From positions 76,892-140,891 of the forward strand of contig CAWBVQ010000003.1 in NCBI GenBank assembly GCA_963792275.1: a stretch of DNA of 64,000 nt, read 5' to 3'. The number at the start of each line of letters is the position of its first letter. Position 1 is the first letter of the stretch. Positions 14,070 to 19,868 of the stretch are shown here, piece by piece. The position numbers and the translations under genes were made by a program. The notes below the pieces were generated by a model. The model worked only from the letters and a program-made list of their open reading frames with translations. It had not been told where the DNA came from and searched no databases. The DNA comes from an uncultured delta proteobacterium (lineage in GTDB: Bacteria; Myxococcota; Myxococcia; Myxococcales; 40CM-4-68-19).

Positions 14070-15542
14070 GTGCTGCGCGAGCTTTCGGATCTGCGGGAAG
14101 ACGCGGCGGGGCTCGCCGCGGGGCTCTCTCGTGCCCGTTACCTGCGCTTCGCCGGCCGCCAGCAGGAAGCGTCGCTGCGCGAGTTGATCCGCTCCCACAA
14201 GCTCGCGAGCAGCGTGGACGGTCTCGCCGAGGCGCGGGAGGCGTTGCAGAACGCCCTCGCGGAGGATCCGATCCGGCAGGCCAGGGTGGCGCGGCTCACT
14301 TCGCTGCGCCACTTCCTCGCGCAGGCGCATGCGCTCGCGCTCGAGCCGGGCGCCGCGCAGGAGCTCTTCGATCTGCCGCAGCGACCGCTGGTGCGGCCGC
14401 CCGGCGACGCCGGCTTGCACGGCGCGCTCCCCGCGGTGGCGGTCTTGCGCGACCTGCCGCGCTTGCGCTCGCGCGAGCGCCGCGGCGAGCTGGAGTCGGC
14501 GCTGGAAGCGGCAATGGCTCCCTACGAGGCCGCCTTGAGCGCGGCCTGGGACGCGGCGCAGTCGGCCCGGGCCCAGGCCGGCCTTGCTCCGCCTGCCGAT
14601 GCCGCCGGATGGGCGACCACGCTGCTCGAGCGCACCGACGCGCTGCAGGCAGACCTCGGGGCGTGGCTCCTCGAACGGCACACCGGCGTCAAGCCCGGCA
14701 TGGCCGCGCGGCACGACGTGCTGCATCTGGTGCACGCGCCGCGCTGCTCCAGCGCGTTCGTCAAAGGAGAGCTGGAGCGCACGGTGCGGCGCTGGGTGGA
14801 GATGCTGCGCCTCGACGTCTCCGAGGTGAAGCTGGACGACGACGACCGGCCGCTCAAGTGGCCCGGCGCCCACGCCGAGCCGCTGGACCCTCCCTACGAG
14901 GCCGGCATTTCGCTCTTGCCCGCGGAAGGGCCGCGGGCGCTCTCCTCGCTCCTTTCCGCGCTGGGCACGGCCCTCTTGCGGGTAGGACCTCCCGCAGACG
15001 CGCCGCCCGAGGATCTCTGGATGGGCGATCCTGCCGTGCGCCATGCCTGCGCCGCGGTGCTCGCGGGCTTGCTCCTCGAGCCCGGGTGGCTGCGTCGCTG
15101 CGCCAGGGTGGAGCTGCAGCGGGACGACGAGCGCGCCCTCGCCATCGCCGCGGTGCTCGACGCGCGCACCTGCGCGGCACGGACCCTGGCCATCCTCGAC
15201 GCGCAGGAGGCCGGCCTGGGCGCGCGGGCGGCGACGGCGCATCGGGAGCTCTACGCTCGCGCCACCGGCGCGGAGCTGCCGCGGGGGCTCGCCCTCCTGG
15301 ATCTCGATCCCTGGCTCGACGCGGAGGCGGAGTTGCGCGGCATGGCGCTCGCGGCCCGGGTGCGGGCGTTCCTGCGCGAGCGGTACGACGAAGACTGGTG
15401 GCGCAACCCGCGCAGCCTTCCTTCGCTGGCCGGCCTCTGGAATCGGGGCGGCAGGCCCACGTTGCCGGAGCTGTGGTCGGAGATGGGAGGCGAGCCCTCG
15501 CTGGACTTTCTGGTAGCCGGACTGACGTCTGCCTGCCGGTAA
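14070..15542 (+). CDS. Conserved hypothetical protein (490 aa), helical and Ala/Leu/Arg-rich
   Basis: Intact ORF with good codon bias, starting 10 nt after the SOD stop. The C-terminus ERYDEDWWRNPRSLPSLAGLWNRGGRPTLPELW is reminiscent of M3-type peptidase C-termini, but no HExxH motif is present. Confidence 0.55.
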   Translation: MLRELSDLREDAAGLAAGLSRARYLRFAGRQQEASLRELIRSHKLASSVDGLAEAREALQNALAEDPIRQARVARLTSLRHFLAQAHALALEPGAAQELFDLPQRPLVRPPGDAGLHGALPAVAVLRDLPRLRSRERRGELESALEAAMAPYEAALSAAWDAAQSARAQAGLAPPADAAGWATTLLERTDALQADLGAWLLERHTGVKPGMAARHDVLHLVHAPRCSSAFVKGELERTVRRWVEMLRLDVSEVKLDDDDRPLKWPGAHAEPLDPPYEAGISLLPAEGPRALSSLLSALGTALLRVGPPADAPPEDLWMGDPAVRHACAAVLAGLLLEPGWLRRCARVELQRDDERALAIAAVLDARTCAARTLAILDAQEAGLGARAATAHRELYARATGAELPRGLALLDLDPWLDAEAELRGMALAARVRAFLRERYDEDWWRNPRSLPSLAGLWNRGGRPTLPELWSEMGGEPSLDFLVAGLTSACR

Positions 15543-15582
15543 AAACCTCTGTTAAAACCTGCGCAATGCTTGCATTTTCTAC

Positions 15583-15597
15583 TGGCGCGGAGCGCCA
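15583..15597. promoter_or_regulatory. Palindrome TGGCGC-GGA-GCGCCA in an AT-rich spacer upstream of the PilZ gene
   Basis: The intergenic region 15543-15662 is visibly AT-richer than its surroundings. It contains a direct AAAACCT repeat (15543-15561) and this palindrome with 6-bp arms and a 3-nt spacer. Candidate operator only. Confidence 0.2.
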
Positions 15598-15668
15598 ATA
15601 CCCTGAAAAGAGGTGGGTGAACCGTTGGCGAGTGTCTTGCTCTAGCGTCGGCGGGTGTTTCTTTGGAG

Positions 15669-16350
15669 ATGGCCGTGATTCGGTGGGGTCTCAGCAGTCC
15701 GGTGCTCGACGAGAGCTGGCCGGTCCGGTACCGGTTCAACTCGATGTTCGATCTCCAGCGGCACCTTCGCCTGGGGGAAGGCTTCTTCCTGCCGGACGGG
15801 GCGCTCCCCGGCGATGCGGGGGCGCGGGTGATCGTGGAAGTCGGGCTTCCGGAGAATGCCGATCGGCCGCTCCTTCACGGCCGCGTGCGGGCGCGCGACC
15901 GCAGCGGAGTTTGGCTGGACCTGCCCATGGCGCGTCCCACCGCGAGATGGGCGCCGGATCCGGGCGCTCCACGCCGTCGCGTCCCCCGGGTGGCCTGCGA
16001 TCTGTTCGTCGAGATCCACCCTCCCGGCGCCGAGCCGTGGCTCTGCCGCGCGCTCGACGTGAGCGAGACCGGCCTTCGGGTCGGATTCGGCGCTGGAGAC
16101 CGGCGTCCGTGGAGACGAGCTTCAGGGCGTGCTGCTCCAGGCGGACGGCCATCTTCCGCCGGCTCCATTTCGCGGCCGCGTCGTCTGGGCGGGACAGCGC
16201 GAGACCGGGCTCGAGCTGGTGGGCGACTCCGCCGAGTTTCGCACCCTGCTCAGCTTCGCCGCGGGCCGCTGGCAACTGGTCCGCGAGATCGACCACGACG
16301 ACCGTTGCCCGTGCGTTCAGGGCGAGGCCAAGGGCCAGCGCCAGCCGTAA
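15669..16350 (+). pseudogene. PilZ-domain protein; frame break near 16086
   Basis: PRRRVPRVACDLFVEIHPPGAEPWLCRALDVSETGLRV matches the PilZ RxxxR...D.S.GG pattern. The sequence continues in another frame as SALETGVRGDELQGVLLQADGHLPPAPFRGRVVWAGQRETGLELVG...*. ATG 15669; TTG 15663 is also possible. Confidence 0.55.
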
Positions 16351-16922
16351 AGCCGGCTGTAGTGCCACCACTCCTTCGGGTTCACGCGAAAGCCGGCGGC
16401 GTACATGGCGCTCTTGAGCGCCTCGCGGTGCGCCTTGGCCGGTCCTTCGGGCAATGGGGCGTCGGCGAACGCCTTGGGACCGAAGTCGTCGAAGGGCGTG
16501 GGCAGCTCCACGCGCTCCCCTTCCGGGTCGGCAAGCTCCAGGTCCACCGCGACGCCCCTCTCGTGAAGGCTGCCGCGCGCCGGATCGGCCACGGCGCCGG
16601 GATGCGGGTGGGCCTTCCACAGCGCCGCCTGCACGCCCGGCGGCCGGGTGCAGTCGCGGGCAACGAGCCGGAAGCCTTGCTTGCGCAAGGTGGCGGCGGC
16701 GATGGCCAGCCGCTGCGCCACGCTGCGGCGCAACCGGCACTTCGCGTCGGCGGGGTAGAGCGCGTGCCCGGTGAAGTTGTGCGGGCCGGCGTAGGCGAGG
16801 CGGACGATGAGCCCGGGCACCACGCTGGAGGCGTCCACCAGCGGATCCTCGGCGTCCGAAACCCTTGGAAGGTGCTGCGGGCCGTAGGTGAGCGCTGCCA
16901 GAAGCGCCGCGGCCGCGATCAC
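16317..16922 (-). CDS. D-alanyl-D-alanine dipeptidase, M15D (VanX/DdpX-like)
   Basis: RLAYAGPHNFTGHALY, the zinc motif SLHERGVAVDLEL and NPKEWWHYS. The N-terminus is signal-like. GTG 16922 overlaps the stop of the upstream small gene (GTGA). The 3' end overlaps the convergent PilZ gene by 34 nt. Confidence 0.8.
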   Translation of the reverse strand: MIAAAALLAALTYGPQHLPRVSDAEDPLVDASSVVPGLIVRLAYAGPHNFTGHALYPADAKCRLRRSVAQRLAIAAATLRKQGFRLVARDCTRPPGVQAALWKAHPHPGAVADPARGSLHERGVAVDLELADPEGERVELPTPFDDFGPKAFADAPLPEGPAKAHREALKSAMYAAGFRVNPKEWWHYSRLYGWRWPLASP

Positions 16923-17230
16923 TTCAGGCGGCGCAGGGCTCTGATGATCTTGTTCTTTTCGGCCGTGCGCACCTGGGTGGCGGCATCCTTCGGGCGCGCC
17001 GTGCGCCCGGCCAGCTTCCGCTTCAGCTCGATCTCCAGCGCCATCAGCTCGGCGCGCGCTTCCGTGTTCTCCTGGCCGCGGCGCGGCAGCGCCTGCTCCT
17101 TGCCCAGCGACGTTCCCGACCGCATCCGGAGCGCCTTCTCCTCTCGCGCGCTGAGCTGCCTTGCGGCCGTGCGCAGCAGTTGCCGCACCTCGGTGCTGGT
17201 GATCGTGCTCGAGGAGGACTTGTTGGACAT
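16919..17230 (-). CDS. Stand-alone, degenerate sigma70 region-4-like protein (103 aa)
   Basis: MSNKSSSSTITSTEVRQLLRTAARQLSAREEKALRMRSGTSLGKEQALPRRGQENTEARAELMALEIELKRKLAGR... aligns without gaps to E. coli RpoD region 4.2 ([49 protein letters not shown]). LSAREEKALRMRSG matches 10 of 14 positions, and the spacing to ...EIELKRKL is the same. The recognition helix is changed (TRERIRQIE to ARAELMALE). No regions 1-3 are present. Confidence 0.55.
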   Translation of the reverse strand: MSNKSSSSTITSTEVRQLLRTAARQLSAREEKALRMRSGTSLGKEQALPRRGQENTEARAELMALEIELKRKLAGRTARPKDAATQVRTAEKNKIIRALRRLK

Positions 17231-17286
17231 TTCGGAGTCACCTCTCCCAGGTCGTCGCGGCGTCGCCATGAACCGTATGCTCCGTT

Positions 17287-17374
17287 CGCAGAAGATCAAT
17301 TTTTCTGCGGAGATTGCTCCGTCTGCGCCCTTCACAGGAACATGGGCGCCAGTTGAAATCAAACTTTTGGCGCC
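17287..17374. promoter_or_regulatory. AT-rich leader/promoter region of the sigma-R4-like gene with two inverted repeats
   Basis: IR-a: CGCAGAA (17287-17293), 9-nt spacer, TTCTGCG (17303-17309). IR-b: GGCGCCA (17345-17351), 16-nt AT-rich spacer GTTGAAATCAAACTTT, TGGCGCC (17368-17374). The region lies 57-144 nt upstream of ATG 17230 on the minus strand. Function not established. Confidence 0.3.
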
Positions 17375-17383
17375 GCGTTCCGC

Positions 17384-17517
17384 CTGCCTGCGCGCGGGGT
17401 CGCGCGCGGCGTGCCGGCGGTGCCGCGGGGGTCCGCGCACCGCGTCGGCGCTGCCTGCGCGCGGGGTCGCGCGCGGCGTGCCGGCGGTGCCGCGGGGGTC
17501 CGCGCACCGCGTCGGCC
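17384..17517. repeat. Near-perfect tandem duplication of a 67-bp unit; each unit carries two GC hairpins
   Basis: Unit 1 is 17384-17450 and unit 2 is 17451-17517. They are identical except for the last base. Each unit has hairpin A, GCGCGCG-GGGT-CGCGCGC (17390-17407), and hairpin B, GCGGTGC(c)GCGG-GGGT-CCGC-GCACCGC (17417-17443). The array lies just 3' of the lipoprotein gene that ends at 17571. It may act as a REP-like or terminator-like element. Confidence 0.9.
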
Positions 17518-17570
17518 CGCCGGGACAGTTGTGCGCGGACCTGCCGAAAGCGCCTGCTTTCCCCCCGCCC

Positions 17571-18596
17571 TCACTTGGGCGGCGCGGCCTCCTCCTCGTC
17601 GGGTTCGTCCGGCTCTTCGGCTGCCGGCGGCGCGGCGCCCGGCGACTTGCCGAGGAACCGGAGCGGGTCCTTCACCGCGTGCGGCACGGTGGTCTCCGGC
17701 TCGAACGCCGGCGCCTTCAGCCCGGGGTCCTTGCCGATGGCGCTGGTCACGAGCACCGTGTGCAGGTCCAACTCGGCCGCGGGGCCGTTGCTGTTGCCCG
17801 GCACCTTGAAATGGCCCTGCAGGTCGCAGGCGAGCGGCGCTGCGGTGGCGGCATCCACGATCACCGTCCCCGAGACGCGCGACGGCTCCTCCTTCTCCCA
17901 CAGCTCCAGCCTGCGCGCAGTGTCGGGATCCACCTTGTCGTCCGGGTATTGCACCGGCGGCAGATCCGTCCGCTCCTGCCGCGAGGGCCGCGCGCCGAAT
18001 CCCGTCACCTCGTAGCGCACCACCCGCCGTCCCTCGGAGGTGGTCGCGCCGGCGTTCTTGAGCTTGAGGCCGCGGGCAAGCCGGTCGAAGGTGGCGAGCC
18101 CGGACATGGCCTGCTCGCGCACGCGCGGCGGGTCGCTGCGGTCGGTGCGGCGCTTGTGGAAGGGACCATAGAGGCTCTTCACGAAGACCTCGCCCTTCAC
18201 CCAGACCAGCTCCAGCCCCTGGTTGTGATCGTTGGCGAGGCGCACCGAGAAGTCGTCTCCCGGGCCGTCCTGGAGCGTGGTCTCTTCCGAGAGCGAGACT
18301 TCCGATCCGCCGTCCGGCAACCCGGGGCCGCGGAACCAGGCGAACTGCACCCGCTGCTGCGCCTTGTGCGGCCCGAGCCGCTGCGCCACCTCCGACTGCG
18401 GCATCTGCAGCACCCGCTCCGCGACTTGCGGCTGGGTTTCGAGGCCCGCCGCGTCCAGCGCCTCCCGGGCCTGGGCCGAGCCTCCCGCCGACTCCTGCTG
18501 CTGCGAGAAGATGCGCTGCCGCGCAGCCTTGTCCTCCTCGCTGCGCTTGCAGGAGGCGAGCAGCAGGAGGGCCAGGAGCGACGCGGTTCTGCGCAT
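17571..18596 (-). CDS. Hypothetical lipoprotein (341 aa) with an acidic Pro/Glu-rich C-terminus
   Basis: MRRTASLLALLLLASCKRSEE has a signal peptide plus lipobox. The ORF is intact with sensible composition. No domain recognised. The tail is ...AAPPAAEEPDEPDEEEAAPPK*. Confidence 0.65.
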   Translation of the reverse strand: MRRTASLLALLLLASCKRSEEDKAARQRIFSQQQESAGGSAQAREALDAAGLETQPQVAERVLQMPQSEVAQRLGPHKAQQRVQFAWFRGPGLPDGGSEVSLSEETTLQDGPGDDFSVRLANDHNQGLELVWVKGEVFVKSLYGPFHKRRTDRSDPPRVREQAMSGLATFDRLARGLKLKNAGATTSEGRRVVRYEVTGFGARPSRQERTDLPPVQYPDDKVDPDTARRLELWEKEEPSRVSGTVIVDAATAAPLACDLQGHFKVPGNSNGPAAELDLHTVLVTSAIGKDPGLKAPAFEPETTVPHAVKDPLRFLGKSPGAAPPAAEEPDEPDEEEAAPPK

Positions 18597-18747
18597 GAGG
18601 GGCGGGAACTTACCGACCACGGCACTGTCCCGCAACGGATCAGGATCGCAAACCCGGCCGGTGACCCCAAGTCCCGCACGCTGACGCGCACGCGCACCCG
18701 CAGCCGCACCCGATCCCGCGAGCGCACCTCGCGAGTCCCCCGCCCTC

Positions 18748-19287
18748 TCATCCCCAAAGCGCGTGCGCGATGATCACCGATGCGGTCAGGCCGGTGAAGT
18801 CAGCCAGCAGCCCTGCCGCGAGCGCGTGGCGATAGCGGACGATGCCCACCGATCCGCAGTAGACGCTGAGCACGTAGAAGGTGGTCTCGGTGGAGCCCTG
18901 CAGCACCGACCCGAGCCTCCCCGCGTAGGAGTCCGGGCCGAGCCCCGGCGTCGCGAAGATGTTGCCGAGCAATCCCAGCGCTCCCGACCCGGAGAGCGGC
19001 CGCACCAGCGCCATCGGCAGCACTTCCGCGGGCAGCCCGAGCGGCCCGGTGACCGGCGCCAGCACCTTGGCCAGCGCGTCCATTGCGCCCGCGCCGCGGA
19101 ACGCCCCCACCGCCGCGAGGATGGCGACGAGAAAGGGGATGATGCGCACGGCGACGTTGAAGCCTTCCTTGGCTCCTTCCACGAACGCCTCGTACACCTT
19201 GACGCCCTTCACCCAGCCGTAGAGCGGAATGCCGACGAGCAGGAGGATGACCACCCAGCTCGAGGCGATTTCGAGCGCGTGCCTCAT
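18748..19287 (-). CDS. spmB: Spore maturation protein B-like (nucleoside-recognition/Gate domain membrane protein)
   Basis: 179-aa membrane protein (WVVILLLVGIPLYGWVKGVKVYEAFVEGAKEGF...VRPLSGSGALGLL...STETTFYVLSVY). Its ATG overlaps the spmA stop (ATGA). Confidence 0.75.
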   Translation of the reverse strand: MRHALEIASSWVVILLLVGIPLYGWVKGVKVYEAFVEGAKEGFNVAVRIIPFLVAILAAVGAFRGAGAMDALAKVLAPVTGPLGLPAEVLPMALVRPLSGSGALGLLGNIFATPGLGPDSYAGRLGSVLQGSTETTFYVLSVYCGSVGIVRYRHALAAGLLADFTGLTASVIIAHALWG

Positions 19288-19868
19288 TTCCACACCCGCT
19301 CGAGCAGCTTCGCGGAGACGATGGCGACGACCAGGGCGCAGAGCGTCGACATCAGCGTGGGCAGGAGGATGCCCGCGGGGTCGGAGGAATGCGCCGAGGC
19401 GCGCAGCGCGATGACGGTGGTGGGGACGAGCTGCAGCGAGGCGGTGTTGATGGCGAGGAAGAGCACCTGCGCGTTGGTGGCGGTGCCCGGGACGCGGTTG
19501 AACTTCTCCAGCTCCTCCATCGCCTTGATGCCGAAGGGCGTGGCGGCGTTTCCCAGCCCGAGCATGTTGGCGGCGATGTTGAGCAGCATCGCCGAGAGCG
19601 CGCGGTCTCCCGACGCATCCGCGGGGATGCCCGGGAAGAGCGGGCGGAAGATGGGCCGCACCGCGCGCGCGAGCTTCTCCACCAGCCCGGCCTTCTCCGC
19701 GATGCGCATCAGCCCGAGCCACAGCGCCATCACGCCGATGAGCCCGATGGCCAGCGTCACGCCCTGGGACGCGCCGTCGAAGGCGCCCTGGCCCACGGCC
19801 TTCACGTCGCCGCGCACGGCGCCCGCGAGCGCCGCGGCGACGAGGAGCAGCACGAACACGAGGTTCAT
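19284..19868 (-). CDS. spmA: Spore maturation protein A-like (nucleoside-recognition domain membrane protein)
   Basis: 194 aa: MNLVFVLLLV...GVTLAIGLIGVMALWLGLMRIAEKAGLVEKLARAVRPIFRPLFPGIP...NIAANMLGLGNAATPFGIKAME. Confidence 0.75.
   Translation of the reverse strand: MNLVFVLLLVAAALAGAVRGDVKAVGQGAFDGASQGVTLAIGLIGVMALWLGLMRIAEKAGLVEKLARAVRPIFRPLFPGIPADASGDRALSAMLLNIAANMLGLGNAATPFGIKAMEELEKFNRVPGTATNAQVLFLAINTASLQLVPTTVIALRASAHSSDPAGILLPTLMSTLCALVVAIVSAKLLERVWK

Follow-up and report, generated by a model that had tools for sequence, protein, structure and literature searches.

A free-standing relative of sigma-70 region 4 in Myxococcota and its clade-specific coupling to an M15D dipeptidase gene

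Why should a bacterium keep, as a gene of its own, a single domain of a sigma factor, and what does it mean that this gene overlaps one for a cell-wall dipeptidase? These two questions are raised by a locus in a 64,000-nucleotide (nt) stretch of DNA from an uncultured delta proteobacterium of the Myxococcales (contig CAWBVQ010000003.1 of assembly GCA_963792275.1, positions 76,892 to 140,891), which is called the window here. On the minus strand of the window an open reading frame (ORF) of 103 amino acids (aa), with its ATG at 17230 and its TGA stop at 16921..16919, resembles region 4 of sigma-70. It is referred to below as the small gene and its product as the small protein; the dipeptidase gene that follows is the M15 gene. 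A first-pass annotation of the sequence had described the small protein as an orphan, degenerate region-4 domain and had suggested a link of the gene pair to cell-wall remodelling. The comparisons reported below place the small protein in a conserved Myxococcota family descended from sigma region 4, for which we tentatively propose a role at a natural partner of region 4, and confine the M15 gene to one clade of that family. The features of the locus are listed in Table 1.

Sequence profiles establish that the small protein and region 4 of a primary-type sigma factor are homologous, since the matches of family profiles in the PDB, the pairwise profile alignment by hhalign and a one-by-one scan of NCBIfam all agree. 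Taken singly, the small protein gave a weak match to the NCBIfam model RpoD_Cterm (TIGR02393; E 0.003, residues 5-74). A profile of its close family retrieved RpoD region 4 in 26 of 28 matches in the PDB, and a profile of 51 diverse members of the wider family reached RpoD/SigA region 4 at E 5.8e-10 (7ye1_F), together with about 50 further sigma chains, each of group 1 or 2 and each in an ungapped alignment. Against the C-terminus of E. coli sigma-70, hhalign returned a probability of 96.5% and an E-value of 7e-10, with 52 ungapped columns that pair residues 25-76 of the small protein with residues 550-601 of sigma-70. When 101 family members were scanned one at a time against NCBIfam, 14 of the 16 families matched were group 1/2 sigma factors, the best E-value of any single member being 1.7e-6. 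The ungapped likeness to RpoD region 4 noticed at first reading, which covers about 68 residues, is thus above chance. As for a match to region-4 profiles, hhalign and the PDB profiles provide one, whereas a search with Pfam Sigma70_r4 gave none at E <= 1 for the small protein of the window or for any of the 51 members. The family scores below the cut-off of every curated sigma model, the single small protein exceeded no cut-off in Pfam, NCBIfam or PHROGs, and the family scans matched no DNA-binding family besides sigma. Regions 1-3 are missing, as had been seen: only residues 9-76 of the 103 are sigma-like, and region 2, which binds the core enzyme and recognises the -10 element, is absent. 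Because it fails the curated models and lacks both region 2 and the DNA-reading residues considered below, the small protein is a derived relative and not a sigma factor.

Nor does the label "orphan" apply. Close homologues of the small protein number 323, share 60-100% identity, are all of about 103 aa and are all annotated "hypothetical"; the wider profile covers 698 proteins, and an exhaustive profile search gave 128 clusters at 50% identity, nearly all of them 95-120 aa long. Orthologues occur in the cultured genera Myxococcus, Corallococcus, Archangium, Hyalangium and Pyxidicoccus, with a single clear orthologue, MXAN_1419 (Q1DCE7), in M. xanthus DK1622. On the evidence of these searches the family is conserved across Myxococcota. 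The remark that no function had been described for it remains correct, as no Pfam model or NCBIfam family covers it, and our literature search found no paper that mentions MXAN_1417 to MXAN_1421 and no account of a cellular free region-4 decoy.

Selection and expression signals both bear on whether the small gene is real. Among the window and 29 genome loci of the same clade, the ratio of nonsynonymous to synonymous substitution rates (dN/dS) has a median of 0.26 at a dS of 0.85 (434 pairs). The Shine-Dalgarno sequence is kept across this clade as (G)AGAGGTG in an alignment of the upstream regions. In 38 aligned upstream regions, a promoter is conserved about 40-70 nt 5' of the start codon, from the clade of the window to Myxococcus, with the consensus of an A-tract plus TTGAYC/TTGCGC and TAnnnT. 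The A-tract abuts TTGATC in the window, Myxococcus having TTGCGC or TTGACC instead, and the -10 element follows after a spacer of about 16 nt as TACGGT, TAGGGT or TACAAT, the last in Myxococcus. A scan for strict consensus promoters and terminators found no match, so that the promoter call rests on its cross-species conservation, and an Rfam scan of 15400-18800 found no RNA family. Since the promoter is conserved across the family, the small gene has a sigma-A-type promoter of its own and is not reached by mere readthrough from the upstream gene. Judged by these patterns, it is a real, selected and independently transcribed gene. The opposite view, that the ORF is not a gene and that its sigma likeness arose by chance in GC-rich sequence, can point to the marginal score of the single sequence against curated models (E 0.003) and to the lack of a Pfam match. 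We nevertheless give it next to no chance, because the hundreds of homologues of full length (30-90% identity), in which start codon, Shine-Dalgarno sequence and promoter are conserved, the low dN/dS and the match of the family profile to sigma (E 6e-10) together rule out a spurious ORF. As a separate observation, the Myxococcus-type loci (L030-L037) have in common, at about 40-95 nt upstream of the small gene, a conserved 5' leader of greater length, in which a hairpin-like sequence, TCCGACATGCTCGGA, follows the TACAAT -10 element; the clade of the window is without it.

Which parts of region 4 have been kept, and which have been given up? In a conservation table of 101 family sequences below 80% identity, read in sigma-70 numbering, E555, R560, M561, R562, G564, L573 and E591 are kept at 97-100%, as is I587 in the form of Leu; L551, L559 and K557 (66% Lys, a further 25% Arg) are conserved as well. 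The small protein therefore shares with region 4 of group-1 sigma factors (RpoD/SigA) the motif E-x-K-x-L-R-M-R-x-G, L573, the I587/I590/E591 core and the R596/K597 region. Its hydrophobic residues V15 and L19 correspond to L540 and T544 of sigma-70, which are listed in the hydrophobic core formed with the beta-flap tip in the gp39 structure paper (PMC3950348). It differs from the group-1 domain in being free-standing and in the residues that read the -35 element. At the positions of R584, R586, R588 and Q589, the protein of the window has R, E, M and A, and in the family R584 is replaced by A/E/G, E585 by D/A, R586 by E (80%), R588 by L (73%), Q589 by L/A, K593 by Q/E and R554 by E (61%). The former recognition helix has become L-x-D-E-L-L-L-I-E-M-Q-L-L-R-A, which is acidic and hydrophobic on all faces, and the segment T-L-E-E-V-G-K-Q-F of sigma helix 3 corresponds to P-L-P-R-A-A-G-G-N. 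The replacement of the -35 recognition helix, first remarked in the window, thus extends to the family, and the accompanying suggestion that the protein is less likely to bind DNA gains from the acidic and hydrophobic character of the substitutions. With such residues, it is very unlikely that the small protein would read -35 DNA in the manner of sigma.

In two runs of AlphaFold2 (predicted local distance difference test, pLDDT, 75 and 79; predicted template modelling score, pTM, 0.37 and 0.40), helices were placed at residues 12-22, 28-38, 56-77 and 90-102, the first three matching H1, H2 and H4 of sigma-4. Both runs gave coil for residues 39-55, the place of helix 3 in sigma, with which the helix-turn-helix begins. 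Taken with the conserved residues, the models suggest that the region 4.1/4.2 scaffold is retained, namely helix 1, helix 2 with E-x-K-x-L-R-M-R-x-G and the hydrophobic core of helix 4, and that the first helix of the helix-turn-helix has been lost. Beyond helix 4 the small protein departs from group-1 region 4 by a variable, Ala/Pro-rich linker of 10-30 residues and an invariant basic C-terminal helix. No element of the family is conserved better than the latter, S-R-x-K-(D/E)-K-I-(V/I)-R-A-L-R-K-K-K, which is nearly invariant at K92, K94, I95, R97, A98 and L99. It resembles both sigma-70 H5 (P-S-R-S-E-V-L-R-S-F-L) and the helix at the beta-flap tip (E-E-K-L-L-R-A-I-F), neither resemblance being statistically resolvable (extra score about 2 bits). 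In a test of H5 homology by hhalign with the linker deleted, the local alignment was not extended significantly; global alignment paired KIIRAL with EVLRSF but at a lower score. The same order of sigma-4, flexible linker and amphipathic helix is found in an engineered sigma-4/beta-flap-tip chimera (PDB 3t72, 7kuf), and a hidden Markov model alignment with 3t72 sets K-D-K-I-I-R-A of the family on E-E-K-L-L-R-A of the flap tip. However, the chimera scores 42.3 bits against 40.6 for sigma-4 alone, a negligible gain, and at the position of its key residue F906 the family has Arg or Lys. The likeness behind the idea of a flap-tip mimic comprises only seven residues. A covariation analysis aimed at the packing of the C-terminal helix on the sigma-4 helices (mean-field direct coupling analysis and mutual information with average product correction; 276 sequences, effective number about 101) gave a signal dominated by indel columns and clade structure.

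Table 1. Features at the small-gene locus, in positions of the window.
Feature	Position	Strand	Basis
Small gene, sigma region-4 paralogue (MXAN_1419 family)	16919..17230	minus	103-aa ORF, homologues, profile matches
Segment homologous to sigma-70 region 4.1-4.2 (sigma-70 534-601), residues 9-76	17003..17206	minus	ungapped alignments
Basic amphipathic C-terminal helix (predicted), residues 90-103	16922..16963	minus	conservation table; AlphaFold2 90-102, pLDDT ~89
Shine-Dalgarno sequence GGAGAGG	17241..17247	minus	10 nt 5' of small-gene ATG; sequence inspection
Conserved sigma-70-type promoter, GAAAAA-TTGATC, 16-nt spacer, TACGGT	17272..17305	minus	conservation, 38 upstream regions
M15D (VanX/DdpX-type) D-Ala-D-Ala dipeptidase gene, 201 aa	16317..16922	minus	Pfam, NCBIfam, motifs
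Lipoprotein gene (lipobox LLASC), upstream neighbour	17571..18635	minus	translation; conserved family-wide
Zincin-like gene, 490 aa, convergent	14070..15542	plus	conserved family-wide; HExxH lost (SALGT)
Perfect 67-bp tandem repeat, two copies	17384..17516	none	Tandem Repeats Finder: 2.0 copies, 100% match

The overlap with a VanX-like gene is as first described, the tetranucleotide GTGA at 16922..16919 holding the GTG start of the M15 gene and the TGA stop of the small gene. The M15 protein matches Pfam PF01427 (Peptidase_M15) at E 1e-25 and 91.2 bits, the cut-off being 27. In NCBIfam it comes closest to DdpX (E 8e-38), at 129.9 bits below the equivalog cut-off of 176, and it is no VanX equivalog (39.4 bits against 320). 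In common with VanX, DdpX and PcgL (MEROPS M15D) it has the PF01427 match and intact zinc and catalytic motifs, SxHxxGxAxD and ExxH appearing as SLHERGVAVD and EWWH; it differs from VanX and DdpX in its sub-equivalog scores, in a signal-like N-terminus and in its coupling to an unrelated small gene. No Shine-Dalgarno sequence precedes the GTG in the window, and in all 30 loci compared (the window and the 29 genome loci) the earliest possible start of M15 ranges from 4 nt inside the stop of the small gene to 25 nt past it, so that translation of M15 by termination-reinitiation is likely. The M15 protein of the window has a hydrophobic N-terminus, and the deep-branching members of its clade L026, L096 and L112 have a complete signal peptide, of Sec type in L096 (MKRIAPIAALALLFAHAAGAQA) and L112, from which the dipeptidase is probably exported. 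Such export would parallel PcgL of Salmonella, which is periplasmic. The small protein carries no signal sequence, and the two products therefore probably end up in different compartments. Where the M15 start overlaps the small-gene stop, what is left of the signal (16880-16922 in the window) is a stretch of about 13 hydrophobic residues that lacks a charged N-region.

How far does the pairing of the two genes reach? All loci of the clade of the window (33/33) have an M15 gene 3' of the small gene. The 29 genome loci, all from metagenome-assembled genomes of uncultured soil Myxococcales, have one gene order in common: spmA/B, the lipoprotein gene, the small gene, M15 and the convergent 490-aa gene. 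M15 is absent from all eight loci of Myxococcus, Archangium and related genomes (the Myxococcus-type loci). In addition, 80 metagenomic loci of the wider family were examined, 45 of which have at least 700 nt downstream of the small gene and 49 enough sequence upstream. Three of the 80 carry M15 (L095, L096 and L112), all belonging to the clade of the window (C-terminus ...RALRRLK); as L112 is too short downstream and was left out of the 45, M15 is present in 2 of these. In these three deeper members it starts 8 to about 160 nt after the small-gene stop, at about 8 nt in L112 and about 160 nt in L096. The pairing with M15 is a stable feature of one clade and not a property of the family. Conservation of the two-gene arrangement in relatives accordingly holds in the clade of the window and fails in the Myxococcus-type loci, and the proposed link to the cell wall cannot be upheld for the family, since a family-wide functional pairing with M15 is rejected by this restriction. 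Most likely, the M15 gene shares the promoter and the ribosomes of the small gene and not its function. The coupling would then be a clade-specific accretion to an operon, which guards against over-reading it as a functional clue.

What, then, might the small protein do? To bind a natural partner of sigma-4 would be its most economical function, because the conserved residues are those of the sigma-4 scaffold and the positions of helix 1 that face the flap tip. We therefore favour, tentatively and as a possibility rather than a probability, a mimic of sigma region 4 that does not bind DNA and docks on the beta flap or on another partner of region 4. The most likely partner would be the beta-flap tip, to which ancestry alone points. 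The small protein would stay in the cytoplasm, would leave promoter DNA unbound and would dock through its retained sigma-4 surfaces, with the C-terminal helix supplying a second contact; once docked, it would be a competitor of region 4 of bound sigma factors or would move that region, and the outcome would be a shifted use of -35-dependent promoters. Small proteins acting at the junction of sigma-4 and flap tip are known, and in AsiA (helix A6) and gp39 (C-terminal helix) a mobile helix joins the hydrophobic core of flap tip and sigma-4 (PMC6755090; PMC3950348). In the small protein, the factors AsiA, gp39 and gp33 of phages would have a counterpart that the host encodes. Like factors of the AsiA/Rsd/gp39 type, which are small helical proteins of about 90-140 aa, it is small and predicted to be helical, and the mode of action of AsiA and gp39 is the one proposed for it; unlike them, it is encoded on the host chromosome and comes from sigma itself, not from an unrelated fold. 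No similarity to AsiA, Rsd or gp39 in sequence or structure was found, as the PDB profile search matched, in the complexes of AsiA and Rsd, only their sigma chains (1tlh_B, 2p7v_B), and searches of BFVD and PHROGs for homology to this type of factor gave no match.

Several observations weigh against such a docking function. The monomer model shows no compact sigma-4 fold (pTM 0.37-0.40), and Foldseek returned neither sigma nor any significant match in the PDB or BFVD. The face that once met DNA (L-x-D-E-L-L-L-I-E-M-Q-L-L) is very hydrophobic, which would equally fit a dimer interface or an unrelated partner. Nothing in the conserved neighbours, one a lipoprotein and the other zincin-like, points to a role in transcription, and the retention of M15 in 33/33 loci of one clade leaves room for a functional tie there. 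The same model and the same hydrophobic face speak for the view that sigma ancestry is only history and that the small protein is now an adaptor or scaffold, possibly a dimer through helix 56-77, for the lipoprotein, the zincin-like protein or another partner outside the polymerase. This view also draws on the fact that the lipoprotein gene, the small gene and the gene of about 500 aa remain linked throughout the phylum, whereas the flanks farther out vary. It does not easily explain, however, why the small gene should be served by a promoter of its own and run convergently to one of the neighbours, how a protein could serve a lipoprotein that is extracytoplasmic, why the small protein stays highly conserved where the zincin-like protein has lost its HExxH, as in many lineages, or why the best-conserved residues are exactly those of the sigma-4 scaffold. 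We regard an adaptor as unlikely on balance, though a serious alternative to the docking mimic.

A smaller chance is given to a regulator that still binds DNA or RNA through its basic C-terminal helix, with or without a remnant helix-turn-helix. The C-terminal K-D/E-K-I-V-R-A-L-R-K-K-K is indeed strongly basic and invariant, and the sigma scaffold retains R560 and R562, the second of which contacts the DNA backbone in sigma-70. But the recognition helix has an acidic and hydrophobic character, the residues R584, R586, R588 and Q589 have been lost, mostly E stands at R554, a Pro/Gly loop takes the place of helix 3, and sigma is the only DNA-binding family matched, all of which make nucleic-acid binding quite improbable. 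Somewhat more improbable still is that small protein and dipeptidase work as a pair by which transcription is tied to the turnover of peptidoglycan precursors or to cell-wall remodelling. Within the clade of the window the pair looks tight, the genes being adjacent in 33/33 loci and, in 30 loci in which identities of the small protein go down to 60%, lying anywhere from a 4-nt overlap to 25 nt apart. Against this, M15 is missing from 8/8 Myxococcus-type loci and from all but 2 of the 45 informative metagenome loci, small protein and promoter are conserved without it, and a signal peptide is found on the M15 product and none on the small protein.

The docking mimic can be taken a step further. 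As a speculation that we hold to be unlikely in its details, the small protein might be a housekeeping-expressed "free sigma-4", whose C-terminal helix, a look-alike of the flap tip or of H5, would cap its own pocket or grip region 4 of sigma-A, uncoupling sigma-4 from the flap and globally retuning -35-dependent promoters. If this is true, the phage sigma-appropriation factors AsiA and gp39 would have in it their first cellular counterpart that stems from sigma. To our knowledge, the well-studied small remodellers of the junction between sigma-4 and beta flap are all phage-encoded (AsiA, gp39, gp33) or unrelated in fold (Rsd). Myxococcota are known for very large repertoires of sigma factors and regulators, and this chromosomal family, a descendant of sigma region 4, may represent a new class of endogenous regulators of the polymerase. 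A link to the polymerase, if it holds, would surprise specialists in transcription; the mechanism rests on inference from sequence alone. The family appears to be expressed from a strong conserved promoter and is directly testable through MXAN_1419 in M. xanthus.

The neighbours of the small gene are conserved to different depths. The upstream lipoprotein, beginning MRRTASLLALLLLASC..., is its most consistently conserved neighbour across Myxococcota: a homologue lies upstream in 43/49 metagenome loci and in all Myxococcus-type loci, and it has no match in Pfam, NCBIfam or the PDB. Downstream and convergent, a zincin-like homologue of about 500 aa is present in 32 of the 45 metagenome loci and in 8/8 Myxococcus-type loci, which are thus made up of a lipoprotein gene (336-347 aa), the small gene and a convergent gene for 500-506 aa. 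The Myxococcus form of the zincin-like protein contains HEMGH and matches angiotensin-converting enzyme (ACE, M2) weakly (E 0.05); Pfam and NCBIfam have no family for it. Among the Myxococcus-type orthologues the motif takes the form HE[MYLF]GH (for example in L030, 6367-7887). In all 26 loci of the clade of the window, and in many other lineages, HExxH is gone from this neighbour, which would make it a recurrent pseudo-peptidase.

Farther out, the lipoprotein gene is preceded on the minus strand, at 18748-19868, by a pair of adjoining Gate-domain (PF07670) genes of SpmA/SpmB type. This flank is conserved only in the clade of the window, the Myxococcus-type loci having DUF2058 and a pseudouridine synthase. 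On the plus strand at about 15720-16350, a PilZ-domain gene (RRRVPR ... DVSETG) is broken into two reading frames, which meet at about 16085-16130, and its 3' end overlaps that of the convergent M15 gene by about 34 nt. The near-identical contig L038, which differs from the window by several indels, has the PilZ gene called whole, at 227 aa. The split reflects either an assembly indel or a pseudogene. The 67-bp tandem repeat between the lipoprotein gene and the promoter of the small gene is GC-rich and contains internal palindromes. L038 apparently has one copy of it, and the difference is therefore one of copy number or of assembly.

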